Source of the DNA: an uncultured Methanosarcina sp.
Lineage (GTDB): Archaea > Halobacteriota > Methanosarcinia > Methanosarcinales > Methanosarcinaceae
Direction: 5' to 3'
Assembly: GCA_965601435.1 (NCBI GenBank)
Contig: CBFCWE010000009.1
Coordinates: 2,467-66,466, forward strand
Length of the DNA stretch: 64,000 bases
The notes below the pieces were generated by a model. That model made no database searches, was not told where the DNA came from, and was given only the letters and a program-made list of their open reading frames with translations. Below, piece after piece: positions 9,761 to 63,863 of the stretch; the stretch's first letter is position 1; the number at the start of each line of letters is the position of its first letter. Both the position numbers and the translations under genes were made by a program.

Positions 9761-9812
9761 GGAAAAGCCGGCCGCCTTCGGCGCCCGGTGAGAGCCCCGG
9801 GACCCGAGGTCT
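9761..9812 (+). repeat. Intergenic hairpin repeat, copy B
   Basis: GGAAAAGCCGGCCGCCTTCGGCGCCCGGTGAGAGCCCCGGGACCCGAGGTCTAATCG. The stem is CCGGCCGCC/GGCGCCCGG (one mismatch) with a TTCG loop. Confidence 0.65.
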
Positions 9813-9861
9813 AATCGAAAAAAACCTGCCATGGATAAAAATTTAAGAAACCAACCCTTCA

Positions 9862-10663: not shown

Positions 10664-11042
10664 AGAAACGGGATCCGAAATATCCAACCCTGAAGTATTC
10701 AACTGATATCATCGGCCTTATCAAAAATACGCAGGAAGGGTCCCTACAGGATTTTGAAGGAGATAGGGACCTGATGCCCTGCATCCGGCTAACGACTTCG
10801 CCCTCTTCAAGCCGTTTTCGCTCAGGAAAACGGTCTTGAAAACCAGTCTTGAAAACAAGCTCTTTTTTCCAAAAAACTTTAAAAATCACAATTTTCAAAA
10901 ATCTCAATTTTGTTGTTACTGTTGCGGCATCCAGAAGTTATTTTGATATTTTAATTAAAAAATAGCGTCGCTGCAAATTTTTATAAAAATTGAAAGAAAG
11001 ATTTTAGAATCTCGTGTTTTAATAAAAACCTTTATTAACCGT

Positions 11043-11060
11043 TATGTATGTTGAAACATA
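11043..11060. promoter_or_regulatory. Palindromic TATGT-N8-ACATA site upstream of modA
   Basis: TATGTatgttgaaACATA lies ~45 bp upstream of a TATA-like AAAATTTATACAC (about 11103-11115). The same motif recurs three times upstream of fmdE. Confidence 0.4.
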
Positions 11061-11133
11061 TCCCTTGAACTCTAAACTGAAAAAGCCCATAAAAATTACA
11101 ATCAAAATTTATACACTGAAATGAGGTTCCCGG

Positions 11134-11961
11134 ATGAAAAAAGTTTGTACATTTGTTTTAATTCTGGTTCTGGTTTTTGCAGCATCGGTATCCGGCTGCA
11201 GCGAGAAGAAAGCAGCAGGTGCAGAGGGTGCAGTTGCAAAAAACCCGGACATGCCGTTTGAAGGACAAAGCCTCACTGTCTGCTCAGGGGCCGGACTTAT
11301 CAAACCCATGAACGAACTGGTCAGGAACTTTGAAAACGAAACCGGAGCCGACATTCAGGTCCGGTACGGTGGAAGTGCCGAGATCTTCGGGATCCTGGCT
11401 GCGCAGGAATGCGACGTTTTCATTCCGGGGGCTTACTACTACACGGAACAGGCAATGGGCAAGCATTATGTCCTGAACGAAAGCGTCCAAAACGTAACCC
11501 TGCATGTCCCTGTGATTGCGGTTCCTTACGGGAACCCCGGAAACATAGGGAAACTTGAAGACTTTGCAAACCCGGGAGTGGAACTGGCTCTGGGAGACCC
11601 GAACGGGCCGGCCATTGGGAAGGTTTCGGAGAAAATATGTTCACAGACAGGTATTCTCCCTGAAGTGGAGAATAACACGATTGTCCGGACCACAACGGTA
11701 AACCAGCTCCTGATTTATGTTGTTACCGGGGAAGTCGACGCGACCATAATCTGGGAGGATATGGGAAGCTGGGGAGAAGCAAACGGGAAACTGGAACTGG
11801 TCCCGATCCCCGAAGAACAGAATTCCATAAAGACCATCCCCACGGCGGTTTCCGTTTATACGAAAGAACCCGAACTTGCAGAAGCGTTTAACAATTATAT
11901 AGCAGGAGAAGAAGCTGAAGGGACCTGGGAAAAATGGGGCTTTGAGCCATGCAGTCCGTAA
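11134..11961 (+). CDS. modA: Molybdate ABC transporter substrate-binding lipoprotein
   Basis: Signal peptide with lipobox (AASVSGC). The pattern LTVCSGAGLIKPMNEL...VRYGGSAEIFGILAAQECDVFIPGA is ModA-like PBP2. Confidence 0.75.
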   Translation: MKKVCTFVLILVLVFAASVSGCSEKKAAGAEGAVAKNPDMPFEGQSLTVCSGAGLIKPMNELVRNFENETGADIQVRYGGSAEIFGILAAQECDVFIPGAYYYTEQAMGKHYVLNESVQNVTLHVPVIAVPYGNPGNIGKLEDFANPGVELALGDPNGPAIGKVSEKICSQTGILPEVENNTIVRTTTVNQLLIYVVTGEVDATIIWEDMGSWGEANGKLELVPIPEEQNSIKTIPTAVSVYTKEPELAEAFNNYIAGEEAEGTWEKWGFEPCSP

Positions 11962-12770
11962 GAAAAACCTGCGTAAGAAAAACTTGCGTAAGGAATTCCT
12001 GGTTCAGGAATGCCACAATCGGCATCTCCTTTTTCTTCACATTTTTGCTTTTCCTGGCCGTGGGGACCCTGCTTCTCGTCCTGAAGCCTTCCGAACTCCT
12101 CTCGGCCCTAATGTCGGAAGAGATGCTTTATTCCATGGAGCTGTCGGTACTCACAGCCTCCATTTCGACATTTTCGGTTATGTGCTGCTCCATCCCTACA
12201 GCCTATGCCCTTTCTCGTTTTTCCTTTCCGGGAAAAAGCCTGGTAAAAACCATTCTCGGGCTTCCCATGGCATTTCCGGAACTCGTGCTCGGGCTTGCCC
12301 TGTTGCTCCTCTTCGGACAGGGCTTTCTGGGACCGTTCCTCGATACCCTGGGAATAAGGGTGCCTTTCAGCAAACTCGGGATAGTGGTTGCACAGTTTTT
12401 CATAGCTTTTCCCTATGCAGTCCGGGTAATCTACTCCACGTTCGAGGACATAAACCCCAGGTACGAGCAGGTTTCCAGGAGTTTCGGATACGGGGAATTC
12501 GAAACCTTCAGGAACGTAACCCTCCCAATGGCAAGGAGCGGGCTTTTTGCCTCGGCAGTGATAACCTTTGCCCGCTGCATAGGAGCTTTCGGAGCCGTGC
12601 TGATCCTTGCAGGGGGCTCGTACATGCACACCGAAGTCCTCCCCGTGACCCTTTACCTGAACATTTCCTACGGGAACCTGGAAATGGCAATCACAAGCGG
12701 AGTCCTGCTGATGTTGATCGCTTTCCTGGCAATCCTGAGTTTCGAACATTTTGAGGGAGGGAGCCTGTGA
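11949..12770 (+). CDS. modB: Molybdate ABC transporter permease
   Basis: Overlaps the modA stop. Polytopic membrane protein with a type-1 ABC permease core (...LGLPMAFPELVLGLALLLLFG..., ...SRSFGYGEFETFRNVTLPMARSGL...). The exact start is uncertain. Confidence 0.75.
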   Translation: MQSVRKTCVRKTCVRNSWFRNATIGISFFFTFLLFLAVGTLLLVLKPSELLSALMSEEMLYSMELSVLTASISTFSVMCCSIPTAYALSRFSFPGKSLVKTILGLPMAFPELVLGLALLLLFGQGFLGPFLDTLGIRVPFSKLGIVVAQFFIAFPYAVRVIYSTFEDINPRYEQVSRSFGYGEFETFRNVTLPMARSGLFASAVITFARCIGAFGAVLILAGGSYMHTEVLPVTLYLNISYGNLEMAITSGVLLMLIAFLAILSFEHFEGGSL

Positions 12771-13990
12771 GTTTCCTTGAAGTAAACAGCCTGCACCTCA
12801 ACGTGGGAGGCTTCGAACTGAGCGGCATAAGCTTGGAGGCAAAAAAAGGAGATTATGTGGCACTGACAGGCCCTTCGGGCAGCGGAAAATCCCTCCTGCT
12901 CGAAACCGTAATAGGCTTTTATGCCCCGAAGAAAGGCAGTATATTCCTGGAAGGCAGGGATATTACGGCGCTTCCCCCTGACAAAAGGCAGATCAGCATT
13001 GTCTACCAGGACCACATGCTCTTTCCCCACATGGACGTTTTTGAAAATATCGCATACGCTCTCCGGAAAAAGCTCAGGGACAAAAAACAGATAGAAACCG
13101 AAGTCCGGCAGATAGCCGGAATCCTGGGAATTGACGGCCTTCTCCACAGGAAACCCACCACCCTGAGCGGAGGGGAAAAACAAAGAGCAGCCCTTGCGAG
13201 AAGCCTGGTCGTCCGCCCGAAACTCCTCCTCCTGGACGAGCCCTTCAGTGCCCTCGACATGCGAAACAGAGAAAACATGAGGGAAGTCCTGAAAAAAGCC
13301 ATCCGCGAATACCGGACCACCGTGCTCCAGGTGACCCATGACTTTGACGATATCTGGAGCCTCGCAAACAGGGTGGTCATCATAAGAAACGGAGAAGTAA
13401 TGCAGGAAGGAGACCCCGAATCCGTATTCAGGCGCCCGTCTCCTGACTTTGTTGCGGATTTCCTGGGCACCAACGTGCTGAAGGGAAAAGTCAGGGCTCT
13501 CGAAGGAAAACTCACGGTGCTTGAAATCCAAAGCTCGAACGATATCAAGGGTACAAACCAGATCCAGATATTAGACCATAATCAAAACCAGAACAAGGCC
13601 CAGAAACAAAAACAGGTACAGAGCCAGGGCCATAGCTTTGAGATCTATTCCGCCGACTCTGCCGAGCCCGGAGAAGAAGTAAGCATTTCCATCCGCCCGG
13701 AGGAAATAATCCTTGCAAGGGGAGCCGTGGAAAGTTCTGCCCGAAACACAGTGAAGGGAATAGTTACTGGAATTTCCAAAAAGGAACACCTTGTCCTGGT
13801 CGAAATGGAAATCGGAAATTCGAGTTCAGGAAATTCGAGTTCAGGAAATTCGAGTTCAGGAAATTCTGGTTCAGGGACTTCGGAGCTAAAAGCCGTAGTA
13901 ACACCCACATCGTGCGAACTGCTGGACCTGGGGATCGGAAAGGAAATTTATGCCGTATTCAAAGCCGCAAATGCCAGAATAATACGCTAA
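12767..13990 (+). CDS. modC: Molybdate ABC transporter ATP-binding protein with C-terminal TOBE/Mop-type domain carrying low-complexity insertions
   Basis: GTGA overlap with the modB stop. Walker A GPSGSGKS, signature LSGGEKQR, Walker B LLLLDEP. The C-terminal SARNTVKGIVTGI...AVFKAANARII is TOBE-like. Confidence 0.85.
   Translation: MSFLEVNSLHLNVGGFELSGISLEAKKGDYVALTGPSGSGKSLLLETVIGFYAPKKGSIFLEGRDITALPPDKRQISIVYQDHMLFPHMDVFENIAYALRKKLRDKKQIETEVRQIAGILGIDGLLHRKPTTLSGGEKQRAALARSLVVRPKLLLLDEPFSALDMRNRENMREVLKKAIREYRTTVLQVTHDFDDIWSLANRVVIIRNGEVMQEGDPESVFRRPSPDFVADFLGTNVLKGKVRALEGKLTVLEIQSSNDIKGTNQIQILDHNQNQNKAQKQKQVQSQGHSFEIYSADSAEPGEEVSISIRPEEIILARGAVESSARNTVKGIVTGISKKEHLVLVEMEIGNSSSGNSSSGNSSSGNSGSGTSELKAVVTPTSCELLDLGIGKEIYAVFKAANARIIR
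13814..13873 (+). repeat. In-frame 15-bp tandem repeat (x4) inside modC, encoding (GNSSS)n
   Basis: GGAAATTCGAGTTCA x3 plus GGAAATTCTGGTTCA, translated as GNSSSGNSSSGNSSSGNSGS. Confidence 0.9.
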
Positions 13991-14119
13991 TCGGAATTAA
14001 AGAATACTCTAACCTAAATTCAAGATACGTCAATCGGAATCAAAGAACCAGAAATTCAGGAAATAGAATGTGATATAAGAATCAAAAGAACAGGGAGCAA
14101 AGGAAGCAGGAGCCAGACC

Positions 14120-14917
14120 ATGATCGATCTTTTTGAACTGTACTTTTTTGAGGACTGCCCCTATCAGGACGAAAGCGCAGAACTGCTAAAGCTTGAAGGA
14201 AAAGGAACTCTCAAAATCCGGACCAGGGAAGCCGGGGTCTGCGCCTGTGCGGAAGACCTGGCCGAATATTACGAAAAAAAGGGCCTGAAGGTCCTGAAAT
14301 ACCTCAGGGACGGGGAGAAATTCGAGCCCCATGACAGCATATTCGAAGCCGAAGGAGACCTTAAAACCCTTTTCAAATTCTGGAGGGTTTCCCAGACCTT
14401 CCTCACCGTCATGTGTGCCATAGCAAGCAAAACCTCAACTTTTGTAAACGCATCCAGAAAAGAAAACCCGGACGTAATAATCGCAGCAAGCAGGAAAACC
14501 CACCCCGGAGCCCGCAGGTTCGAGACCAAAGCCATAAGGGCAGGAGGAGGAGACGTCCACAGAAACTCCCTCAGCGATTCCATCCAGCTCAGCCAGAACC
14601 ACCTGGAAGTGGCAGGGGAACTGAAAAAACTCCGCGCCCTGAAAAAGATAGAAATCGAACCCAGGTCCAGGGAAGAAGCCTTCAAATTCGCCGAAATGTC
14701 CGACATCATGCTCCTTGACCACCTTTCCCCTGAAGAACTCCGGGAACTGGGACCCGAACTCAAGAAACTCAACCCGAAACTCGAACTCGCTGTTGGAGGC
14801 ATAAAGGCAGATAAGATTCCCGAATACGCGCCTTTCGTGGACATCATAGTTTCGAGTGCCCCGTATTATGCACAGCCCCTTGACTTTACGACGAAGATCG
14901 AGAGAATAGGGAACTAA
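14120..14917 (+). CDS. modD: ModD protein (quinolinate phosphoribosyltransferase-family, molybdenum-utilisation associated)
   Basis: N-terminal FEDCPYQDESAELL and ...SRKTHPGARRFETKAIRAGGGDVHR... match the QPRTase/ModD fold. Located directly after modABC. Confidence 0.7.
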   Translation: MIDLFELYFFEDCPYQDESAELLKLEGKGTLKIRTREAGVCACAEDLAEYYEKKGLKVLKYLRDGEKFEPHDSIFEAEGDLKTLFKFWRVSQTFLTVMCAIASKTSTFVNASRKENPDVIIAASRKTHPGARRFETKAIRAGGGDVHRNSLSDSIQLSQNHLEVAGELKKLRALKKIEIEPRSREEAFKFAEMSDIMLLDHLSPEELRELGPELKKLNPKLELAVGGIKADKIPEYAPFVDIIVSSAPYYAQPLDFTTKIERIGN

Positions 14918-14950
14918 AGTTGAAGGCAGCAGCAAAAGAAGAAAGCTAAA

Positions 14951-15029
14951 ATCAACAGCTAAGGCCAACAGTTAAAACCAATAGCTTAAGCCAATAGATA
15001 AAGGGAATGAACAAAGCCAACAGATAAAG
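14951..15029. repeat. Degenerate 13-14-bp tandem repeat in the modD/DUF364 junction
   Basis: ATCAACAGCTAAG, GCCAACAGTTAAAA, CCAATAGCTTAAG, CCAATAGATAAAG ... GCCAACAGATAAAG. Confidence 0.7.
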
Positions 15030-15037
15030 GTGACCAT

Positions 15038-15865
15038 ATGACAGGCAACGAAAAAAAGTATGAAACCGGAGCCGTACCTGCCCTTGTAAACGAACTCAGG
15101 GAGAACTTCGGGCCTGCCCTTGAAAAAATAAAAGCCGAAGACGTCCGCATAGGCCTTGCCTACACCGGAGTTATGCTCTCGGATGGCTACGGAGGCGTGG
15201 CCTGCACTCCACTTTACGATTTTTCCGGCTGCCCTGCCCTGGGTTTTGCAGGCAGGCTGAAAGGAAGTTCCGCAAACACCCTGCTCGAACTAGCCCTCTC
15301 GAAAAACCACCTTGAAGCAGCCGTAGGAATCGCAGCCGCAAACGCCCTTTCCCACATGCACCTGGACCGAAAGCCCGAAAACTTCCCGGCTTCGGGACCT
15401 GACACGGAACTTGACGTCCTTGACCTCATCAACCCCGGAGACAGGGTTGCAATGGTGGGCTATTTCGCCCCCATGATCCCCAGTATTTCGAAAAAAGCCG
15501 GGAGCCTGACCGTCCTTGAAAAGCGGGAAATCGAATCCCCAAAAGTAAAAACCCTGCCCTCGGAAAAGGCAGAAGAAGTCCTCCCCGCCTCCGACGTAAT
15601 AATTCTCAGTGCCAGCACCCTTGCCAACGGCACACTGGATGAGCTCCTGAACTTTGCAGCCTCCGGGGAGGCAAGAGAAGTTATACTGCTTGGGCCGAGT
15701 GCACCCCTCTACCCGAAGCCTTTCTTTGAACGTGGGGTTACGGCAGTAATGGGGACAAAAATTACCGATTCGAAGAATATGCATACAGTGCTTAGCGAGG
15801 CAGGGGGAACTAAGAAGTTACATAGGTGCTGTGGAGAGAAGGTGGCTTTCAGGAAAAAGCACTAA
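15038..15865 (+). CDS. DUF4213/DUF364-family protein (putative heavy-metal chelation, Rossmann-like)
   Basis: IGLAYTGVMLSDGYGGVACT (DUF4213-like N-domain) plus VAMVGYFAPMI...SDVIILSASTLANGTLDELL...ILLGPSAPL (DUF364-like). Confidence 0.6.
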   Translation: MTGNEKKYETGAVPALVNELRENFGPALEKIKAEDVRIGLAYTGVMLSDGYGGVACTPLYDFSGCPALGFAGRLKGSSANTLLELALSKNHLEAAVGIAAANALSHMHLDRKPENFPASGPDTELDVLDLINPGDRVAMVGYFAPMIPSISKKAGSLTVLEKREIESPKVKTLPSEKAEEVLPASDVIILSASTLANGTLDELLNFAASGEAREVILLGPSAPLYPKPFFERGVTAVMGTKITDSKNMHTVLSEAGGTKKLHRCCGEKVAFRKKH

Positions 15866-15951
15866 AAAGTCCGCTAACGTTCAGGAAAAGTAACATGTTA
15901 GCCGTTTTTACTCGAAATTTTAGTCCCCGGGAAAGTTAAATCGTATAGATT

Positions 15952-15998
15952 TCTGATCCCCACGCTCTCACCGGTCGTCGAAGACGACCGGCTTTTCC
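15952..15998 (-). repeat. Intergenic hairpin repeat, copy D (left flank of the ATPase-PIN cassette)
   Basis: The reverse complement reads GGAAAAGCCGGTCGTCTTCGACGACCGGTGAGAGCGTGGGGATCAGA, with a 9-bp perfect stem CCGGTCGTC/GACGACCGG. Confidence 0.7.
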
Positions 15999-16239
15999 AG
16001 AAGAAAATTGAAAAAAAAACCGCTGTCAAAAGCGATCCTTACATATGAAAAACAGAACTTAATGTCCCTGCCTGCTTTTAAGATTGGTACTGCTTTATCT
16101 TAACAAAGTCCTGAATTCTGAAAAACCAGCTTTATCCCCTAAATATAAATGCTTGAAGGAAGTAAATTTGATCCTTGAGAAAAAGCTTCGAGGTTCAAAG
16201 GTTCAAAAATGAGCCATTCATGGTATGAGGAAAAAGAGC

Positions 16240-17550
16240 ATGATCACTTCATTCTCTATTAAAAATTTTAAAAGCTACCGGACCGCTGAGATGCATTTCG
16301 CCCCCCTTACCCTGTTTATCGGCGCAAACGCTTCAGGAAAAAGCAATGCTCTGGAAGCAATTCGTCTTCTATCCTGGATGGCTGGAGGAGGACGTTTAGA
16401 TGATATTGAAAGGGGAATGAAAGAGGTAGATCCGTTTGTACGCGGACAGCCTTTAGACCTGTTCAGAAATACAAAAAAAGGATTTGAAATCGGCTGCCAG
16501 ATTGACGGCATTGAAGAAGATTGGGACAGGTTATCACTGGAAATCAGCCTGATTAAAGATCACCTGATTATTACCGGAGAATCGGTCTCAAAAGATTCTG
16601 AGTCACTTCCTCTATATACCGTAGACAGCAAACCCAATGCTCATACAGATGAAATCAGGGTCAAGTACAACAACTTCAGCAAAGGAAAAAATAAACCGCA
16701 TATTCCCTGTTCAAATAAACAGGCAATATTTTACCAGCTAGAAACCCCAGCACGTTTTGCTAAATCCCACGAGAAATCACAGAAAATCATCCCTTCTGTC
16801 GTCAAAGGAATTCGAGAAACTCTCAGAAATGTGGTATTTCTTGATCCCCGGCCCGCAGAGATGCGCGATTATTCTTATGCAAAAGATGACAAGATGAAGG
16901 AAGATGGATCAAATTTGTCCAGTGTTATTTATAAAATATGGAATGGAGATCCTGCGGATAAAGGCAAATTGCTTGAATTCGTCCGATCCCTTCCGGAACA
17001 GGACATTAAAGATATTAGCTTCATCGAAACGGGCCGCAACGATGTCATGGTCCGGCTGGTTGAATCTTTTGGCAATGCAGACAATGAAGTTGATGCCCCC
17101 ATGCTTTCAGATGGAACACTGCGAGTTCTGGCAGTGGGTGCAACGCTTCTAAGTGCACCCCGGGGGTCCCTGGTCATTATAGAAGAGATCGATAATGGAG
17201 TGCACCCAAGCCGTGCTGACAGCCTTATCCGACAAATTAGAAAAATATCAGAAGAAAGAGGACTGAGGGTACTGCTGACTTCTCATAATCCCGCCTTACT
17301 TGATGCCCTACCAGATGACTCACTGGGAGATGTCCTGTGCTGCTACCGGGACCCGGAAGAAGGAGACAGCCGGATTGTGCGCTTGAGTGATCTGGACCGT
17401 TATCCCGAACTTGTTGCTCAGGGCTCGCTGGGGCAACTGATGACAAAAAATGTGCTAGATCGTTATATAAAAGACAAAACCACTTCAGAAGAAAGAAAAA
17501 GTGAAGCACTCTCCTGGCTGAACGAATTGAAAAAAGAGGTGCCTGAATGA
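16240..17550 (+). CDS. ABC-type (AAA_21/AAA_15-like, RecF/SMC-related) ATPase, soluble
   Basis: Walker A GANASGKSN, signature-like LSDGTLRVL, Walker B LVIIEEID, H-loop LLTSHNP. The N-terminus MITSFSIKNFKSY is typical of this clade. The ORF could also start at 16225. Confidence 0.75.
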   Translation: MITSFSIKNFKSYRTAEMHFAPLTLFIGANASGKSNALEAIRLLSWMAGGGRLDDIERGMKEVDPFVRGQPLDLFRNTKKGFEIGCQIDGIEEDWDRLSLEISLIKDHLIITGESVSKDSESLPLYTVDSKPNAHTDEIRVKYNNFSKGKNKPHIPCSNKQAIFYQLETPARFAKSHEKSQKIIPSVVKGIRETLRNVVFLDPRPAEMRDYSYAKDDKMKEDGSNLSSVIYKIWNGDPADKGKLLEFVRSLPEQDIKDISFIETGRNDVMVRLVESFGNADNEVDAPMLSDGTLRVLAVGATLLSAPRGSLVIIEEIDNGVHPSRADSLIRQIRKISEERGLRVLLTSHNPALLDALPDDSLGDVLCCYRDPEEGDSRIVRLSDLDRYPELVAQGSLGQLMTKNVLDRYIKDKTTSEERKSEALSWLNELKKEVPE

Positions 17551-18008
17551 GTGCTATTTGCCTTGTTGATACCTCAATCCTAGTCGAAATTCTTAACGTA
17601 CCTAAGAAAGCTGGAAGACATGAAAAGATATTATCTGAACTTAAAACCAAAATTGAAAATGAAGAAACATTGTTTCTTCCGATGGCAACAATCCTTGAAA
17701 CAGGCAATCATATCGCTCAAAACGGGGATGGAAACCAGCGAAGGAGCTGTGCTCAAAGGTTTGTATCTCAGGTACAGAGGGCTCTCAACGGAGAATCGCC
17801 CTTTAAGCCGATCAGTTTTTTAACTGAAAACCAGTTGCAACAATGGCTAAACGAATTCCCGGAATCCGCTATGAGAGGCAGTGGTCTGGGAGATCTTTCG
17901 ATAATCCATGACTTCAATAGAATGTGTGAAAAGAACCAAAGGCGGCGAGTATATATCTGGTCACTTGACGAACATTTATCCTCCCGATGCCAGGAAGAAA
18001 GGATTTGA
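17547..18008 (+). CDS. PIN-like nuclease domain protein (153 aa)
   Basis: ATGA overlap with the ATPase stop. Four acidic residues sit in PIN-typical contexts: D8 (CLVDTSILV), E51 (TILETGNH), D116 (GLGDLSII), D141 (IWSLDEHL). Confidence 0.5.
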   Translation: MSAICLVDTSILVEILNVPKKAGRHEKILSELKTKIENEETLFLPMATILETGNHIAQNGDGNQRRSCAQRFVSQVQRALNGESPFKPISFLTENQLQQWLNEFPESAMRGSGLGDLSIIHDFNRMCEKNQRRRVYIWSLDEHLSSRCQEERI

Positions 18009-18073
18009 AAAAGAACAATTTCCGGACAAGTTCCATGAATATTCTGCTTATTTTCATTCATTTATATTTTTCA

Positions 18074-18122
18074 GGAAAAGCCGGTTGCTTGCGCAACCGG
18101 TGAGTTCCCGGGGTTCGATCTC
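18074..18122 (+). repeat. Intergenic hairpin repeat, copy C (right flank of the ATPase-PIN cassette)
   Basis: GGAAAAGCCGGTTGCTTGCGCAACCGGTGAGTTCCCGGGGTTCGATCTC, with an 8-bp stem CCGGTTGC/GCAACCGG. Confidence 0.7.
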
Positions 18123-18143
18123 TATAAAGACAACTGCTGCACT

Positions 18144-18310
18144 GGGAACTGAAAAGCCAGAAATATTGCATTACGGTACGGGAAATTGAAAAGCTAGAAA
18201 ATTGTATAATGGCGCTGGAAACTGAAAAAAAACAGAAAATCGAATCAAAGGAAAACTGAAAAATTAGAAAAAATTACATTTCCGGTAAAACTGAAAATCC
18301 AAAAAAAAAG
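18144..18310. repeat. Five degenerate A-rich repeats with a ~33-37-bp period
   Basis: The core GGAAAcTGAAAAgccAGAAAAT recurs starting at 18144, 18180, 18217, 18250 and 18284. Confidence 0.7.
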
Positions 18311-18334
18311 AAGTTGAGGGCTTTAATCACCCTC
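18297..18334 (-). terminator. Putative fmd operon terminator (hairpin plus oligo-T on the minus strand)
   Basis: The minus strand reads GAGGGTGATTAAAGCCCTC followed by AACTTCTTTTTTTTT, ~70 nt downstream of the fmdB stop. Confidence 0.5.
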
Positions 18335-18404
18335 ATTTCATAATTCCATCAGTTTATTTCCCACTATCCCCCTACCTGAAAATCCTCGGGAAACAAAAGC
18401 TATC

Positions 18405-19718
18405 TTACACCCTTTCCTTGATCTTGGCAAAGAGCTGCTTCAGGGTGTCTTCGTTGCTCTGCGTGAACTCGAAGGGGGAAGTTGTGAAGGGTTCGAAGTG
18501 CACGGCAACGTCGTCCAGCCTGTAGAAGGTCCCGTCGCATTCCATGGCGTCGATGACTCCGGGGAGTACTACGTCGGATGCTACTGTGGTCGGGCAGGGA
18601 GCGATGTCCAGGCAGACCAGGGGGATTTCGGCAAGGTAGGAGGCACAGTCGGCAGGGATGTGGCAGACAAGGTCGGCACACATAACGAGGGCTGCGTCCA
18701 CGTCCTTTTCCCTGAGGAGGTCTACGGTTGTGAATTCTCCGGGGTTGTAGCGGGGGTGGCCCCTCATGAAGTCAAGCCCGAAGGGGTAGCCGTAGAGGTA
18801 GGAGGCGATCTGGTTGAAACCTGCTACATTGCAGTGGCCGCGGAGAGCACCCAGGGTGAACTTGGTGTAGTTGTTCAGCTCCTTGACCAGGTTCATGGCA
18901 ATTTCGGCGTTCCTGTGCTTGCCTATAGAAGAGGACAGGCCAAGGCCTACGGAAATAGCCCCAAACTTGCAGTTCTTCATCATCTCGAGCATTTCTTTCA
19001 TGGTGGAGATGGGGACCCCGGTGATTTCTTCTACCGAGGGGTGGGGCTCTTTTCCGTGCAGGATTGTAAGAAGCGCGCTTCCCAGTTCGTAATCGGAATT
19101 GGGCTTGAGCTGGATGTGCAGGTCCGAAGCTTCTGCGGTGGGAGTCTTTCTCGGGTCGATGGTTATTATCGTCCGGTCAAAACGCCCGCGCTTTGTCCAG
19201 TAACCTCTGGGGAAAACCCCGTACCTGGACATCTGCCGCGGCATGGACTCAAGCGGGTTGGTCCCCCAGTATACCACAAGATCTGCCCTGTTTTTCTTCT
19301 GCCCTTCCGTTGCCCCGACTTTTCCTGCTTCCTGGATTCCCATGGCCGTTGGCCCGTGGCAGATAGTGGCATTGGAGTCGACAACTGCCCCCAGGTATTC
19401 CCCGATATGGAGCCCTACTTCGTGGGCTTCACAGGAGGTCTCGCTCCCCAGGAAAAGCAGGGGGCGCTTTGCGGAAACCAGGATGTCAGCAGCCTTTTCA
19501 AGGGCAGCGTCCCAGGCTGCGGACTGGGGTTTGCTGTCCCCTTCCTTTTTAATGAGGGGCTCCCTGAGCCTGTGGGAACTTACGACTTCCCTGAACTTGG
19601 CACTTCCCATCCTGCATGCGTTCTTTACTTCAATCGTTCCGTCCCCGAGCTCGACCTGGATATCATCACAGGCTGCCCCGCAGACAGGACATACTATGTT
19701 TTTGGAAACCATATTCAC
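18405..19718 (-). CDS. fmdB: Formylmethanofuran dehydrogenase subunit B (molybdopterin-binding, Cys type)
   Basis: The N-terminal CPVCGAACDD...KNACRMG cluster motif and ALRGHCNVAG active-site region. Last gene of the fmdEFACDB order. Confidence 0.9.
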   Translation of the reverse strand: MNMVSKNIVCPVCGAACDDIQVELGDGTIEVKNACRMGSAKFREVVSSHRLREPLIKKEGDSKPQSAAWDAALEKAADILVSAKRPLLFLGSETSCEAHEVGLHIGEYLGAVVDSNATICHGPTAMGIQEAGKVGATEGQKKNRADLVVYWGTNPLESMPRQMSRYGVFPRGYWTKRGRFDRTIITIDPRKTPTAEASDLHIQLKPNSDYELGSALLTILHGKEPHPSVEEITGVPISTMKEMLEMMKNCKFGAISVGLGLSSSIGKHRNAEIAMNLVKELNNYTKFTLGALRGHCNVAGFNQIASYLYGYPFGLDFMRGHPRYNPGEFTTVDLLREKDVDAALVMCADLVCHIPADCASYLAEIPLVCLDIAPCPTTVASDVVLPGVIDAMECDGTFYRLDDVAVHFEPFTTSPFEFTQSNEDTLKQLFAKIKERV

Positions 19719-20104
19719 AGCCCTCCGACATAAACTTTCAAAACAACGTCTTCGGCGCTCAGGACCTCGTCTTCCGTGAGCTCGATGCTTACGGGAGCAC
19801 CCTTGTACAGGGGAGAGCCCGTGGAAAGGGTATCAGGGTCAATGACCACGTTGGACCAGATGGCCCTTGGCATAAACACATGCCCTTCACGGACCGCATC
19901 CGTACATTTCGTGTTGACTGCAACCGTGTGTTTGCCGTTCCGGCTGGCCACTTTCACCTTTTCGGGAGAACCGAGCGCTTCAAAATCTTCAGGGGAAATC
20001 CAGCAGACCGCACATTCCGCCTGGTATTCAACGGTCAGCTTGTCTCCTCCCTTGGCAAGTTTGCCTTCCTCAATCGTACTTCCGGTAATGAGTAATACTT
20101 CCAT
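19715..20104 (-). CDS. fmdD: Formylmethanofuran dehydrogenase subunit D
   Basis: Start set at the ATG giving MEVLLITGSTIEEGKLAKGG, preceded by GGTGAGAGGA. 130 aa, molybdopterin dinucleotide-binding beta-barrel-like. ATGA-type overlap with fmdB. Confidence 0.85.
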   Translation of the reverse strand: MEVLLITGSTIEEGKLAKGGDKLTVEYQAECAVCWISPEDFEALGSPEKVKVASRNGKHTVAVNTKCTDAVREGHVFMPRAIWSNVVIDPDTLSTGSPLYKGAPVSIELTEDEVLSAEDVVLKVYVGGL

Positions 20105-20114
20105 TCCTCTCACC

Positions 20115-20936
20115 TCAGAGCCCCGGGTTTGCGTCCGCAGCCACATAGAGCACACCTTTTGCCCGCTTGCTGATCGCAAAGTCCCCTGCAAATTTCTTGA
20201 ACTCGCCCGCGTACTCGAAGTCTCCGAAAGCGGGGCTCGTTTCCGACCCGACGTATTCGAAGCCCGGAGAAAAGCGCTCGATCCGGCCTCCGATGAGCAG
20301 GGTGCCCCCACTCATTTCAACCCCGACAGTTCGAAGGGCGCCGCCGCGGACAGCAATAAGCCCTCCGGTCTGGCGAATCCCGCAGAAGCCTTCCACATTT
20401 CCTTCCACGAAGATTTCCCCGCCGTCTATGCCGCCACCGAGCTGGTGCCGCGCAGAGCCATCTATCACTATGCGCCCGCCTTTCATCCCGTGCCAGGAAC
20501 CCCGGTAAGCGCAGCCAACGTGGTCGCCGGCGTTGCCTTTGATGTGTAAAAGCCCGCCTTCCATTTCCATACCTGCCCAGGAATCCACGTCTCCCGAGAC
20601 CAGGATTTCACCTCCTTTCATCCCGGTACCCACATGCATGCCTGCGGAACCTTCGATCTTGATCCTGCCTGCGGTCATGCCTTCCCCGATCTTTTTGACC
20701 CGGGGCACGTCCCCTTTTATGCGGATCAGGGTATCTTCGGCAGTTTCCCCGGCAAAATCCTCTTCATTTCTTTCCACGTCGAAAAACTCGGCAAGGGGAT
20801 AGGTCTTTGGCCCCTGCCAGATTTCCAGCTTTCCGATTTCCTCGGCGCTCTTGCCGGCAAACGCTTCAGGGGTGATGAGCTCTGCCTCAAGTTTGATGTC
20901 AATTTCCTTTTTCGGTATAAGCACTACTTCTGCCAT
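20115..20936 (-). CDS. fmdC: Formylmethanofuran dehydrogenase subunit C
   Basis: 273 aa with repeated G-x-G-rich beta-helix segments (GSAGMHVGTGMKGGEILVSGDV..., GNAGDHVGCAYRG...). Confidence 0.9.
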   Translation of the reverse strand: MAEVVLIPKKEIDIKLEAELITPEAFAGKSAEEIGKLEIWQGPKTYPLAEFFDVERNEEDFAGETAEDTLIRIKGDVPRVKKIGEGMTAGRIKIEGSAGMHVGTGMKGGEILVSGDVDSWAGMEMEGGLLHIKGNAGDHVGCAYRGSWHGMKGGRIVIDGSARHQLGGGIDGGEIFVEGNVEGFCGIRQTGGLIAVRGGALRTVGVEMSGGTLLIGGRIERFSPGFEYVGSETSPAFGDFEYAGEFKKFAGDFAISKRAKGVLYVAADANPGL

Positions 20937-20940
20937 TGCC

Positions 20941-22695
20941 TCACCTCTCTTTGTTTATCTGTATCGGGGTCGGGTTTGCAAGGTACTTTTCAGGAGTCGG
21001 GTAGTTGGCAAAACCAAGGGTGTAGTACCTGAACCACTCCTTCACGTCAACCAGCATCTCTTTTTCCTTTTCATCTTCCACGTGCACCTCGGAATAGTAA
21101 GTCCGCTTTTCGGGCACGGATACGATTTCCCCGTTCTTTGCCACGATTTCTCCCGCCTTGACGGTGTATTCAGCCCGCCTGAAGGTCCGGATGAGTTCCT
21201 CGTAATTATTCGAATCGAGTTTCTGCGGGTTGATATTGTAGACCGTAACGTCCCCGTCCGCCCCGATGCCCAGGGACCCTTTCCTGTGCACCATACCGAT
21301 GGTTCGGGCAGGGTTGGCCCTGGTCAGGATTGCAATATCGTAGAGAGAAAGTTCCCGGTCCACGCCGCCAAGCTCGCTCCTGTCATTGGCCCATTTATGG
21401 CATTCGCCGAAGGTCTGTTTCCTGGAAGCCTCTGACATGAGCCAGGTCATGACTTCGGGATATTTCGTAAACGGCCCGCCGTTCGGACTGTCTGTGGTCA
21501 TGATGGTCTTCCAGGGGTCTTTGATCAGAAGAAGAGTCTCAAGCCCCATTGCCCACTGCAAACTGTGCACAGGGTTGGACTTAAGGTAGGTAAAAGGAAT
21601 AACCCCTGATCCGCATTCCAGCTCAATGTCAGCGTTCGACCATTTGTTGCCTGTAAGGGTGTAGAGGTCGTGGATTGCAGGCCCGTCCCCGGTCATGACA
21701 GTCGCTTCCCCGAAAGGTGTGCAGCCGCTGTCGATAACCACATGGTCTTTATTGTTAATGTAATCCGCAATGTCTTTCACACCGGACTCACAGTCCCCCC
21801 AGCTTGTGCCCGCAAAACTGTTGAACATCAGGTGAGTGAGGTAGACCGAACGGTCCCGGGAAGGGTCCATTTTTGTCTCAGCCCATTCCACATCCATTTT
21901 CTGTTTGGCCTTTACCCCGTCAGGGATTTTCAGGGAATCTTTTGTGATCTCGCAGCAGCCCGGATGCCCGAGGTTGTTGGCGTGCAGGTGCAGGGGCATG
22001 GGCATTCCCAGCATTTCGTTAACTTCTGTCAGGCCCCTGATCATTTCCCTGGGAGTCATTTCGAAATGGATGTTGGCCTGGTCCAGGTTGTTTACGTTTT
22101 CTCCCCAGCCCCAGTTCTCAACCCCCGCAGGGTTGACGCACTTGATCCCGTAGGTCTTGTGGGTTTTCATCATCCAGGCAACATAGGCTGCTGCTCTATC
22201 GATTTCTCCGTCCCTTAAGTAGCGCATCAAAAACCAGTTGTTCCCGAGCACCAGGTAGCTGCCCATGTCAAGCAGGGGAGTGGCACGCATTTCCTCATGG
22301 GTATGCCTGGCTTCAAGCGGGGGAACTGCGGCTTCAAAGACCGTGGTGTAACCCATTGCTGCGTAATCGTAGCCCTGTTTGTAGACCGAAGGGACAGTGT
22401 ATCCCGAACCCGAATGAGTTAGCCCGGTCTTATTAATGTTGGTTTTGTAGTGGTCCTCAGGACGCATCTGCCTTCCGGCATTGACTTTTGCCCCTGCTAC
22501 GTGAGAGTGGGAGTCAACCCCGCCCGCCATGACCGTCATGCCTGTGGCATCGATTACTTTTGCGTCCTGCATTTCGGCAGCGGAAAGTTCCTTTACGACT
22601 TTTCCGTCCCTGATAAAGATGTCCATGACGTCCCCGTTGATCTCGTTCAGGGGGTCTAAGACGTACCCGTTCTTGATGGCAATGGTTCCTGCCAT
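20941..22695 (-). CDS. fmdA: Formylmethanofuran dehydrogenase subunit A (amidohydrolase fold)
   Basis: 584 aa. MAGTIAIKNGYVLDP...GGVDSHSHVAG is typical of FwdA/FmdA. Confidence 0.9.
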   Translation of the reverse strand: MAGTIAIKNGYVLDPLNEINGDVMDIFIRDGKVVKELSAAEMQDAKVIDATGMTVMAGGVDSHSHVAGAKVNAGRQMRPEDHYKTNINKTGLTHSGSGYTVPSVYKQGYDYAAMGYTTVFEAAVPPLEARHTHEEMRATPLLDMGSYLVLGNNWFLMRYLRDGEIDRAAAYVAWMMKTHKTYGIKCVNPAGVENWGWGENVNNLDQANIHFEMTPREMIRGLTEVNEMLGMPMPLHLHANNLGHPGCCEITKDSLKIPDGVKAKQKMDVEWAETKMDPSRDRSVYLTHLMFNSFAGTSWGDCESGVKDIADYINNKDHVVIDSGCTPFGEATVMTGDGPAIHDLYTLTGNKWSNADIELECGSGVIPFTYLKSNPVHSLQWAMGLETLLLIKDPWKTIMTTDSPNGGPFTKYPEVMTWLMSEASRKQTFGECHKWANDRSELGGVDRELSLYDIAILTRANPARTIGMVHRKGSLGIGADGDVTVYNINPQKLDSNNYEELIRTFRRAEYTVKAGEIVAKNGEIVSVPEKRTYYSEVHVEDEKEKEMLVDVKEWFRYYTLGFANYPTPEKYLANPTPIQINKER

Positions 22696-22696
22696 A

Positions 22697-23734
22697 TCAT
22701 TCCACCTCCCTTTTCACAAGCCTGATCGCGTCCACGGGACAGATAAGAGCACATGTGCCGTCTCCTCCGCAGAGTTCCTGGTCCACGACTCCTACCTTTC
22801 CGTCTTTAACCTCAAGGATAGCTTTCTCATCCAGGTTATTCAGGTGCCCTGCAGCAAGTTCCCTGTCCCCAAAGGCATTTACGGGACAGACGATCACGCA
22901 GTTCCCGCAGCCCAGGCAGCTTGCATCGTCGGTTTCCAGACGGGTGCGGAGCAGGACTTCAGGGATCGGGGCCTCAAGCAGCTTTTTCTCAAGGGGACCT
23001 TTTTTCTCCAGTTCCGGCAGGATAGCGGTCTTTCGGACATCAATGGCGTCCACGGGACAGGACACGGCACAAGCCCCACAGTAGATGCAGGCATCAGGCC
23101 GGTGAGTAAGCTTTTCGACCCTTTCCCCGGCATTCCACTCTTTATTGAAAAGAGCATTTGCAGGGCAGACTTCCACACAGGTGTGGCAGGTCTGGCAGGT
23201 GTTCTCGTCCCATTCCCAGCGGCCTTCAAACGGCTTTTCCACGGAAATGGCATCCACAGGACAGACCGCCGCACACCAGCCGCAGTGCACGCAGCTTTCC
23301 GTATCAATGCTGGTCTTTCCAACAAGCTTCAGGCTTCCGTCTTCTGCAGGTTCTTTTGTAACCGTAATGCAGTCTTTCGGGCAGACTTCAGCACAGAGCC
23401 CGCAGTGAACACAGTTTTCGTTCACGGAAGTGGGTTTCAGGGCTCCTGAAAGGTAAGAAGCATCTTTCAGGGACTTTCCTTCCTGCCTCAGTTCCAGGGC
23501 ACCTGTGGGGCAGACCCTGGCGCAGATCCCGCAGACAAGGCAGTCTTCGCCTTTCATTTCAAGAAAATACGCATCCAGCAGACCTCTTGCCACGGCGCCC
23601 ACGGCCCCGATTGCAAGGCTCCCTTTCGGGCAGGCCTGCACACAGGTCCCGCAGCCTATGCATTTATCAGGCAGGTAGACCAGTTGCTTGTCTTTTTTTT
23701 CAGAAAAGACCGACAATTTTCTGTCATCTTGCAT
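22697..23734 (-). CDS. fmdF: Formylmethanofuran dehydrogenase polyferredoxin subunit F (eight [4Fe-4S]-type motifs)
   Basis: Start set at the ATG with GAGGT upstream (MQDDRKLSVF...). Seven C-x2-C-x2-C-x3-CP motifs plus one variant (CGGDGTCALICP). Confidence 0.85.
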   Translation of the reverse strand: MQDDRKLSVFSEKKDKQLVYLPDKCIGCGTCVQACPKGSLAIGAVGAVARGLLDAYFLEMKGEDCLVCGICARVCPTGALELRQEGKSLKDASYLSGALKPTSVNENCVHCGLCAEVCPKDCITVTKEPAEDGSLKLVGKTSIDTESCVHCGWCAAVCPVDAISVEKPFEGRWEWDENTCQTCHTCVEVCPANALFNKEWNAGERVEKLTHRPDACIYCGACAVSCPVDAIDVRKTAILPELEKKGPLEKKLLEAPIPEVLLRTRLETDDASCLGCGNCVIVCPVNAFGDRELAAGHLNNLDEKAILEVKDGKVGVVDQELCGGDGTCALICPVDAIRLVKREVE

Positions 23735-23753
23735 TTTATTTACCTCTAAACCG

Positions 23754-24323
23754 TTATTCTGTGCATTCGCCGCACAGCAGCTCATCATTATACCGAATGA
23801 ACATCTCGCCGCAGTTTTCACAGCGCTGTATCCGTTTTTTCCCCTTAACCGGGACTTCGAGGTCCACAAACTTCCAGGTGTACACCTTTTCCCCGGCAGC
23901 CAGCAAATCAGGCAGAACCTCGGTGTGAGGGAACTTTGCGGTGTTCAGGTACCAGGCGTGAAGGGTAGGGTACTCCTCAGTTTTTTCAGGGTCAAGAATG
24001 ATGCGGACCCCCCTAACAGCATCTACACCATCAGGAACTCGTTTGTTCACGGTTACTGCCATTTTCCCCAGGTCCTTGATTTTCAACCCGTTATTCCCGC
24101 TGGTTGCCCCACCCAGGATCTGGAAAGGGTCAGGTACGCAATTTCGGGTTTCACAGGTCACGTATATACGCTCCCCGTCCCTGACATCGAGCACTTTCCT
24201 TGCAATATTGAGCATCTGGAGGCCGATGAAAGCCCCGGAAGTCAGGTAGCCGTGAAAGGGGACGAGCTTCTCGATCTGGGAAAGCAGTTCAGGGTCCTTT
24301 ATTTGTTCTATAATCGTTTCCAT
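23754..24323 (-). CDS. fmdE: Formylmethanofuran dehydrogenase subunit E
   Basis: METIIEQIKDPELL...FHGYLTSGAFIGLQM, with a C-terminal zinc ribbon CENCGEMF...CGEC. An alternative GTG start lies at 24335. Confidence 0.85.
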   Translation of the reverse strand: METIIEQIKDPELLSQIEKLVPFHGYLTSGAFIGLQMLNIARKVLDVRDGERIYVTCETRNCVPDPFQILGGATSGNNGLKIKDLGKMAVTVNKRVPDGVDAVRGVRIILDPEKTEEYPTLHAWYLNTAKFPHTEVLPDLLAAGEKVYTWKFVDLEVPVKGKKRIQRCENCGEMFIRYNDELLCGECTE

Positions 24324-63789: not shown

Positions 63790-63863
63790 GCCTCGTTGGC
63801 TCAGCCCGGTAGAGCGAGTGACTTGTAATCACTAGGTCGCGAGTTCGAATCTCGCACGGGGCT
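63790..63863 (+). tRNA. tRNA-Thr (anticodon UGU), no encoded CCA
   Basis: Hand-folded cloverleaf. Acceptor GCCTCGT/ACGGGGC (one G-U pair). D arm GCTC-AGCCCGGTA-GAGC. Anticodon arm AGTGA-CTTGTAA-TCACT. Variable loop AGGTC. T arm GCGAG-TTCGAAT-CTCGC. Discriminator T. Confidence 0.9.

Follow-up and report, generated by a model that had tools for sequence, protein, structure and literature searches.

Gene cassettes nested in bacteriophage exclusion (BREX), defence island system associated with restriction-modification (DISARM) and type I restriction-modification (R-M) loci have been sought by Payne et al. ("guilt-by-embedding"), and 145 "phage defence candidates" were curated computationally from that search (bioRxiv 10.1101/2024.01.29.577857). 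One of these candidates, PDC-M07, is cassette CAS_00050, with the composition FAM_00005>>FAM_01367 (supplement to bioRxiv 10.1101/2024.01.29.577857). HEC-03 is an ATP-binding cassette (ABC) ATPase, HEC-03A, paired with a VapC-like PIN protein, HEC-03B; it protects Escherichia coli, and both genes are required (bioRxiv 10.1101/2024.01.29.577857). Here we describe a pair of overlapping genes, A and B, in a 64,000-nt stretch of DNA from an uncultured Methanosarcina sp. (contig CBFCWE010000009.1, positions 2,467 to 66,466), hereafter the window. The pair has the architecture of HEC-03, an ABC ATPase gene followed by an overlapping gene for a small VapC-like PIN protein, and by sequence matching it is a full-length member of PDC-M07 rather than a new kind of system.

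Several other modules invite comparison. HEC-01 combines an ABC ATPase with a DUF4276/TOPRIM-like protein and protected against at least one phage (PMC12881386); its ATPase is placed in FAM_00005, the same protein family as the PDC-M07 ATPase (bioRxiv 10.1101/2024.01.29.577857). Septu and the PtuAB-containing retrons (Ec78, Ec83, Eco7) follow the same logic as the window pair, with an ABC ATPase oligomer, PtuA, and a small nuclease, PtuB, which is of the HNH type. PARIS, with the AAA_15/21-type ATPase AriA and the DUF4435/TOPRIM effector AriB, is a two-gene module in which sensing of anti-restriction proteins releases a tRNA-cleaving effector. PrrC, the ABC-ATPase-linked RNase encoded inside the type I R-M operon EcoprrI, consists of one polypeptide whose C-terminal part is a HEPN-like anticodon nuclease, and comes into action, as a back-up, once restriction is inhibited.

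The A-B pair is, in the reading that we favour and consider moderately probable, a stand-alone copy of PDC-M07 that functions in defence, as a two-component and horizontally mobile module of the class in which an ABC ATPase is combined with a nuclease effector; its PIN RNase would be held in restraint and would abort infection when released.

A full-length PDC-M07 pair with a PIN-fold second component

Against PADLOC-DB v2, residues 6-438 of gene A align with positions 1-432 of the 435 in the PDC-M07A profile (E 8.8e-209, 691.9 bits), and residues 1-149 of gene B align with positions 1-157 of the 161 in PDC-M07B (E 3e-61, 204.2 bits). The layout is also that of PDC-M07, A then B, adjacent, on the same strand and with a 4-nt overlap. 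At the family level nothing sets the window pair apart; what is particular to the copy is its archaeal host, one of the Methanosarcinaceae, and its isolated position among housekeeping genes, outside any defence locus. The first-pass annotation, made from the sequence alone, had correctly read two genes overlapping by ATGA and had presented them as an unnamed system, with no named system known to it in which the effector is a PIN domain. Neither of the latter two statements survives, given the full-length match to PDC-M07 (bioRxiv 10.1101/2024.01.29.577857, supplement) and HEC-03, which is a named and validated ABC ATPase and PIN system. With PDC-M07 matched and HEC-03 in existence, the pair maps, in part, to an already named family, an outcome which that annotation had itself listed as counting against its proposal.

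Gene A encodes a soluble ABC-type ATPase. Pfam AAA_21 (E 1.2e-29, 104.8 bits) and AAA_15 (E 1.8e-22, 80.9 bits) are both matched above their cut-offs, in agreement with the type of ATPase initially proposed, and every catalytic motif recognised at the outset is in place: Walker A (G33ANASGKS, with K39), the signature-like LSDGTLRVL, Walker B with the catalytic Glu (LVIIEEID) and the H-loop (LLTSHNP). All are invariant in an alignment of 25 sequences, in which residues are numbered 5 lower than in the 441-aa open reading frame (ORF). The C-terminal helix of A is conserved as well, with W426 and L427 (436-aa numbering) invariant, and is a candidate site of contact with B. The N-terminal part of the protein has weak similarity to RecF, Rad50 and SMC heads, and the only NCBIfam matches are to MAD3, RecF and PtuA, all far below cut-off. 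For the AlphaFold2 (AF2) model of A (pLDDT 79.5) the nearest solved structures are PtuA in the Septu and retron Ec78, Ec83 and Eco7 complexes (E ~1e-13), followed by an SMC head; as the TM-scores are only 0.4-0.5, the likeness is to the ABC head and not to the whole protein.

The cut-off of NCBIfam NF041760, the PtuA family, is 500 bits, and gene A reaches 35.1. Gene B is a PIN and not an HNH protein, and there is neither a retron reverse transcriptase nor a retron non-coding RNA at the window locus. Membership in Septu, for which there is only a generic match at the level of the ATPase, is ruled out. PARIS is ruled out likewise: A matches generic AriA models (E 7e-29), whereas B has no AriB match in the library in which a true AriB scores 9.6e-60. 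AbiL and MADS, also matched only generically through the ATPase, were rejected as identities of the pair. After PDC-M07A, the next-best PADLOC match of A is HEC-01A (E 1e-39), and here the effectors differ, TOPRIM-like in HEC-01 and PIN in the window pair. As FAM_00005 is common to PDC-M07 and HEC-01 but is paired with different effectors in the two, the sequences suggest one ATPase family, or chassis, on which effectors are exchanged.

For gene B, the Pfam PIN match is sub-threshold (20.5 bits versus 23.6), NCBIfam has no match and a search of Protein Data Bank (PDB) sequences with the gene B profile returned nothing meaningful. Because these sequence searches gave no name, a fold search was needed. 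The AF2 model has a pLDDT of 93.7, and the best 25 Foldseek matches in the PDB are all PIN-domain proteins, mostly VapC or FitB, with probabilities of 0.9-1.0; the top matches are the PIN domains of VapC, FitB, PAE0151, AF1683 and SMG6, at probability 1.0 and with TM-scores of 0.55-0.72, and VapC20 is also among the 25. The fold comparison therefore confirms, for the predicted structure, a VapC-like PIN fold, as the first reading of the sequence had anticipated from four acidic residues. These residues, D8, E51, D116 and D141, are where that reading had put them and are invariant in 26 homologues, as are T9, N54, H55, D122 and H143. In fold and acidic tetrad, gene B is thus closest to VapC and FitB, but the small DNA-binding VapB antitoxin of a VapBC pair is absent, and the upstream partner is a 436-aa ABC ATPase.

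The same structural evidence bears on whether the pair might act on DNA, as a Septu-like complex. In such a complex the ATPase would recognise foreign DNA by its ends, by its structure or by a lack of modification, and the PIN protein, working as a DNase or flap nuclease, would degrade the invader itself and spare the host. PtuA and SMC/RecF-type heads are the nearest solved structures to gene A, the wider PIN-like superfamily includes FEN/EXO1-type DNA nucleases, and a partner working at the DNA level would suit the nesting in BREX and R-M loci described below. However, the FEN/EXO1-type nucleases appear only at ranks 42-48 of the Foldseek matches of gene B, with probabilities of 0.2-0.3, behind 25 leading matches to RNase PINs of the VapC, FitB and SMG6 type; B is a minimal 153-aa PIN protein, with neither the helical arch nor the H3TH DNA-binding modules apparent in the secondary structure of its model; and PtuAB in retron systems is itself reported to target tRNA. 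A DNA-targeting complex is, on this evidence, distinctly unlikely.

HEC-03 remains the nearest parallel in design. The two systems have the same gene order, overlapping genes and a VapC-like PIN effector of ~155 aa in HEC-03, and both are found embedded in another defence system. Their sequences are, however, different. The gene B profile, compared with the HEC-03B sequence from the supplement, has no detectable relation to it (hhalign probability 2.7 %), and there is no HEC-03B model among the PADLOC matches at E <= 1. HEC-03A, annotated as a DUF3696 protein, aligns by BLASTP with gene A, which has no DUF3696 match in Pfam, only through generic ABC motifs, namely the Walker A and signature/Walker B segments (29 % over 114 aa). 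Membership in HEC-03 is ruled out by the unrelated PIN proteins, the generic-only ATPase match and the PADLOC assignment to PDC-M07. PDC-M07 is, on these comparisons, a second and sequence-distinct lineage with the ATPase plus PIN architecture beside HEC-03.

Conservation and context of the pair in other genomes

Relatives of gene B number 1,277 among 90 %-identity clusters and 946 among 50 %-identity clusters at E <= 1e-3. Almost all of the best 150 representatives are stand-alone proteins of ~150 aa, and the two longest (260 and 268 aa) match partially. Relatives are encoded in at least 549 GTDB species representatives, with a patchy taxonomic distribution that includes Methanothrix, Desulfovibrio, Halomonas, Pseudomonas, Microcystis, Myxococcus and Pirellula, and bacterial relatives are still 60-70 % identical to the window protein, which indicates recent transfer between the domains. 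A homologue of gene A lies directly upstream of B on the same strand in all 78 of the species loci having upstream DNA, from Methanothrix to Pseudomonas and Microcystis, as the initial proposal that the two genes would co-occur required. Of the 46 homologous loci that could be scored, 44 have overlapping stop and start codons, 30 of these with a 4-nt NTGA overlap, and identity to the window protein is correlated between A and B (r = 0.87, n = 72 loci). From the unbroken gene order, the overlap and the co-varying identities it follows that the pair evolves and moves as a single unit. No match to the cassette was found in 50,697 phage genomes or in IMG/VR contigs, and a search of the BFVD viral structure models, for a viral origin or decoy, returned no convincing relative.

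Context was scanned with PADLOC in the 35 loci whose flanks are complete, on the 70 genes directly beside the pair. BrxC (11 occurrences) and PglX (10) are prominent among these neighbours, and about one third of the loci, archaeal ones included, have the pair within a BREX system, between BrxC and PglX. In Kushneria the locus reads BrxB-BrxC-[A-B]-PglX-...-PglZ-BrxL. Between PglX and PglZ of Kushneria pakistanensis there is also an embedded GmrSD_N/GmrSD_C (BrxU-like) gene (L081:14030-15715), so that one BREX operon carries two different nested modules. Archaeal Methanothrix BREX contigs have the order BrxC-[A-B]-...-PglX, with BrxC at 1,605 bits and PglX at E 1.7e-294. One of these, the metagenome contig L098, has in addition two DUF1670 genes between BrxB and BrxC (L098:1748-3192) and a gene for a 631-aa SLFN_AlbA_2/HATPase_c_4 protein between the A-B pair and PglX (L098:8491-10386), which may be further embedded or accessory genes.

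Elsewhere the pair is found in other defence settings. On a Vibrio campbellii plasmid it is placed within a type I R-M operon, hsdM-hsdS-[A-B]-hsdR, beside AbiE, a position reminiscent of PrrC, but with the PIN protein encoded separately; no PrrC model is present among the best 25 PADLOC matches listed for gene A or among the matches of gene B. In a Microcystis genome (GCA_007096775.1, L083:5630-8088) PARIS, with an AriA-like ATPase and AriB (E 9.6e-60), adjoins the A-B pair divergently; there, PARIS and PDC-M07 form a two-system mini-island between the rbcLXS operon and ycf4. The BREX and type I R-M embedding that defined the candidate is therefore recovered in these relatives, and defence contexts, for which the first-pass annotation had proposed to look, are found in other genomes. 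The pair is also cargo on mobilisable plasmids, of 9 kb in Acinetobacter and 11 kb in Lactococcus, and in the Acinetobacter plasmid p10FS3-1-10 it adjoins a RelE/ParE module.

The fixed position BrxC-[A-B]-PglX in a third of the loci, together with the copy between hsdS and hsdR, could be taken to mean that the pair is an accessory subunit, such as a guard, that works only with BREX or R-M, in which case the isolated window copy would be a non-functional or decaying remnant. Against this, about two thirds of the loci are outside BREX, the pair occurs alone on the 9-11 kb plasmids, and in the window both ORFs are intact and all catalytic residues are those that are invariant in the family. Copies that are identical to the window pair, or 98-99.5 % identical, are moreover present in several independent assemblies and, with the intact ORFs, argue for a maintained function. 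Obligate dependence on BREX or R-M is, consequently, very unlikely.

Plasmid carriage and the RelE/ParE neighbour are, on the other hand, what might be expected of a toxin-antitoxin or addiction module, in which the PIN protein would be a toxin of the VapC type and its antitoxin, the ATPase, would be unusually large. Such a pair would be kept because its loss kills, for instance as a means of stabilising plasmids or genomic islands, with no dedicated antiviral role. The nearest folds to B are indeed VapC and FitB toxins, tight translational coupling is typical of toxin-antitoxin pairs, and the window copy is a stand-alone insertion among housekeeping genes. But a pure addiction module would not be expected to lie repeatedly within BREX and type I R-M operons, or next to PARIS; the putative antitoxin is a 436-aa enzyme with all ABC motifs invariant, which implies regulated, ATP-dependent switching and not simple neutralisation; and relatives free of the cassette exist, so that its loss is tolerated. 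We regard addiction as an unlikely explanation of the pair, and it and the defence model are not mutually exclusive.

The insertion in the Methanosarcina locus and its surroundings

In the window, the pair is encoded between two convergent host units (Table 1), and its neighbours are those that the first-pass annotation had described. Upstream are modA, modB and modC, a QRPTase-like gene and a DUF4213/DUF364 gene, for which an exact-sequence look-up returned no match, and downstream is the convergent fmd operon, with genes for a molybdopterin subunit, an Amidohydro_3 subunit and a polyferredoxin. A scan of metagenomes identified a contig, L091, from a relative 90-93 % identical in sequence, that aligns to window positions 10959-16031 and 18038-23797 and has ~100 nt in place of the cassette. 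The difference is an indel of ~1.9-2.0 kb with a low GC content. Alignment of the junctions with L091 revealed no target-site duplication, terminal repeats, integrase or recombinase gene at the indel. The cassette has a GC content of 0.439, and of 0.39-0.42 at third codon positions (GC3), versus 0.505-0.575 and 0.54-0.70, respectively, for the neighbouring genes. The pair had been judged AT-richer than its neighbours at the outset, and so it is, but the lines of 30-32 % GC then cited are local minima and not the average. Since the site is empty in L091 and the base composition deviates, the sequences support the view that the cassette is a foreign, accessory insertion, acquired horizontally.

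Table 1. Positions of the A-B cassette, its candidate signals and the surrounding elements in the window
Feature	Position	Strand	Remarks
Gene A, soluble ABC-type ATPase, family PDC-M07A	16240..17550	+	436 aa from the most likely start; longest ORF, from 16225, 441 aa
Gene B, 153-aa VapC-like PIN-domain protein, family PDC-M07B, predicted nuclease effector	17547..18008	+	
ATGA stop/start overlap, translational coupling	17547..17550	+	Read directly from the sequence
GAGGTG, Shine-Dalgarno-like motif	17536-17541		Five bases ahead of the gene B start
TAAATATAAA, possible archaeal TATA box of the cassette (low confidence)	16140..16149	+	Read from the sequence; within the inserted segment
Indel segment carrying the cassette	16032..18037	.	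Defined by BLAST; junctions near 16098 and 18018 in the fine alignment
Hairpin element (CTCACCGG-stem-CCGGCTTTTCC)	15945..15998	+	3' of the DUF364 gene; context, outside the module
Same hairpin element, inverted	18074..18127	-	3' of the fmd operon; context, outside the module
Third copy of the hairpin	9761-9815	-	

The empty site in so close a relative and the foreign composition also bear on whether the pair could be a housekeeping RNA-processing or DNA-repair complex, a Rad50/RecF-like ATPase with a processing nuclease. The resemblance of the N-terminus of A to RecF, Rad50 and SMC heads would fit such a role, but all of the corresponding NCBIfam matches fall far below their cut-offs, and neither the dispensability of the cassette nor the patchy distribution, with its high identity between Archaea and Bacteria, is that of a housekeeping function, which can hardly be credited here.

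The site is variable beyond presence and absence. The cassette is present with 98-99.5 % identity in other assemblies (L087-L090), and in L086 (GCA_049177285.1) it is accompanied by a 2.46-kb segment (L086:942-3403) that encodes a DUF2254 protein and replaces window positions 16003-16198. This DUF2254 gene, directly upstream of the A-B pair, encodes a predicted membrane protein of 730 aa with no PADLOC match. Among close Methanosarcinaceae the same site thus exists in three states, empty, A-B, and DUF2254 with A-B, and with at least three alleles the intergenic space between the convergent host units is a small variable hotspot.

For gene A, an ORF of 441 codons is present as first annotated, but translation most likely starts at the second ATG, M6, resulting in a product of 436 aa. 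The profile and homologue alignments of A begin at residue 6 of the longer ORF, a GAGG is located 9 nt 5' of 16240 with nothing comparable 5' of 16225, and a 436-aa protein 100 % identical to the gene A product (P0121) is on record from a Methanosarcinaceae metagenome-assembled genome. The assignment of TAAATATAAA as the TATA box of the cassette is made with low confidence, as this sequence is not conserved in L086, where the DUF2254 segment takes its place.

Inverted hairpin repeats had been noted on both sides of the cassette. The repeats are real, but they do not mark its boundaries. They are copies of a dispersed element of ~55 nt, TAGAnnTCnGnnCCC...CTCACCGG-stem-loop-CCGGCTTTTCC, present three times in the window, and when these copies are aligned with the L086 orthologue the stems are seen to carry compensatory changes (TCGTC/GACGA, TTGC/GCAA, GCGCC/GGCGG). 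The 11-mer CCGGCTTTTCC, with up to one mismatch, occurs 11 times versus 2.4 expected, and no Rfam family matches the element. Both of the hairpins that flank the cassette are also present in L091, the relative with the empty site, and therefore belong to the host locus and not to the cassette ends; with the third copy elsewhere in the window, this led to their rejection as terminal repeats of a mobile element. The element is probably specific to the lineage and of a 3'-end or terminator type, belonging to convergent host operons. The interval from the downstream hairpin to the fmd operon (3' end) also has, in window 18141-18308, five A-rich repeats with (A/G)AACTGAAAA that start at 18141, 18178, 18218, 18252 and 18287, spaced 34-40 nt apart. 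Their interval is inside the part aligned with L091 (18038-23797); if the copies themselves are conserved there, they are host sequence. Across the 64 kb, Rfam has a single match above the gathering score, a tRNA gene at 63790-63863 (+).

Proposed mode of action and its implications

By analogy with PARIS, Septu/retron PtuAB, PrrC and HEC-03, a sequence of events can be proposed for the A-B pair as a defence module. ATPase A would form an ATP-dependent oligomer, and the PIN nuclease B, bound by this oligomer, would be held inactive. A cue derived from a virus or plasmid would then set off conformational cycling of A that frees or activates B; an anti-restriction protein, foreign nucleic acid recognised by its structure, or falling ATP could be such a cue. 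As a VapC-like, Mg-dependent RNase, B would presumably cut an essential and universally conserved RNA, tRNA or rRNA, translation would halt and the infection would abort. The sensor and restraint logic is drawn from these analogies, the need for both genes from HEC-03 and the choice of RNA as the substrate from the VapC-like fold; the defence phenotype and a complex of A with B are likewise inferred from the parallels.

A number of points weigh against this reading and account for the reserve with which it is offered. The window cassette is outside any defence island, alone among the molybdenum transport, DUF364 and fmd genes. HEC-03 is a precedent in architecture only, as gene B has no detectable sequence relation to HEC-03B, and HEC-01 gave no protection in the original screen (bioRxiv 10.1101/2024.01.29.577857). 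The sequence of B does not tell whether its substrate is RNA or DNA, nor whether A acts by restraint or by activation. Two other PADLOC candidates, PDC-M63 and PDC-S04, failed when tested (PMC12409345). For PDC-M07, no experimental report was found in the literature, so the description of the pair as uncharacterised in the first-pass annotation still holds; a search for the name "PDC-M07" returned no paper, and the supplements of an archaeal survey do not list it.

A more specific proposal, possible though doubtful, is that PDC-M07 is a portable guard of restriction-type immunity. The ATPase would sense a broadly conserved counter-defence cue, such as DNA mimics with anti-BREX or anti-restriction activity or a fall in ATP, and would release the PIN RNase to cut tRNA or rRNA at a universally conserved site. 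This would explain both the presence of a 60-70 % identical cassette in Archaea and Bacteria and its fixed position within BREX in the two domains. If true, the pair would join a very small number of abortive-infection modules for which function in both Archaea and Bacteria, without change, has been shown, and the stand-alone copy in the Methanosarcinaceae would lend itself to tests in an archaeon.

Little of archaeal immunity has been characterised, and most archaeal matches in defence catalogues are candidates without a test (PMC12988326). The architecture and family of the A-B pair are already on record, and no new principle, nor anything that would surprise a specialist, is claimed for it; the cassette is well suited to experiments but does not represent a new kind of system. 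PDC-M07 is highly conserved in the two domains, with members in methanogens as well as in Pseudomonas and Microcystis, and copies of it recur inside BREX and type I R-M loci. The site that exists in three states in close Methanosarcinaceae is a clean natural experiment. A test of the pair would validate a catalogued candidate, would define a second, sequence-unrelated ATPase plus PIN defence lineage beside HEC-03, and would show whether such modules back up restriction-type systems.

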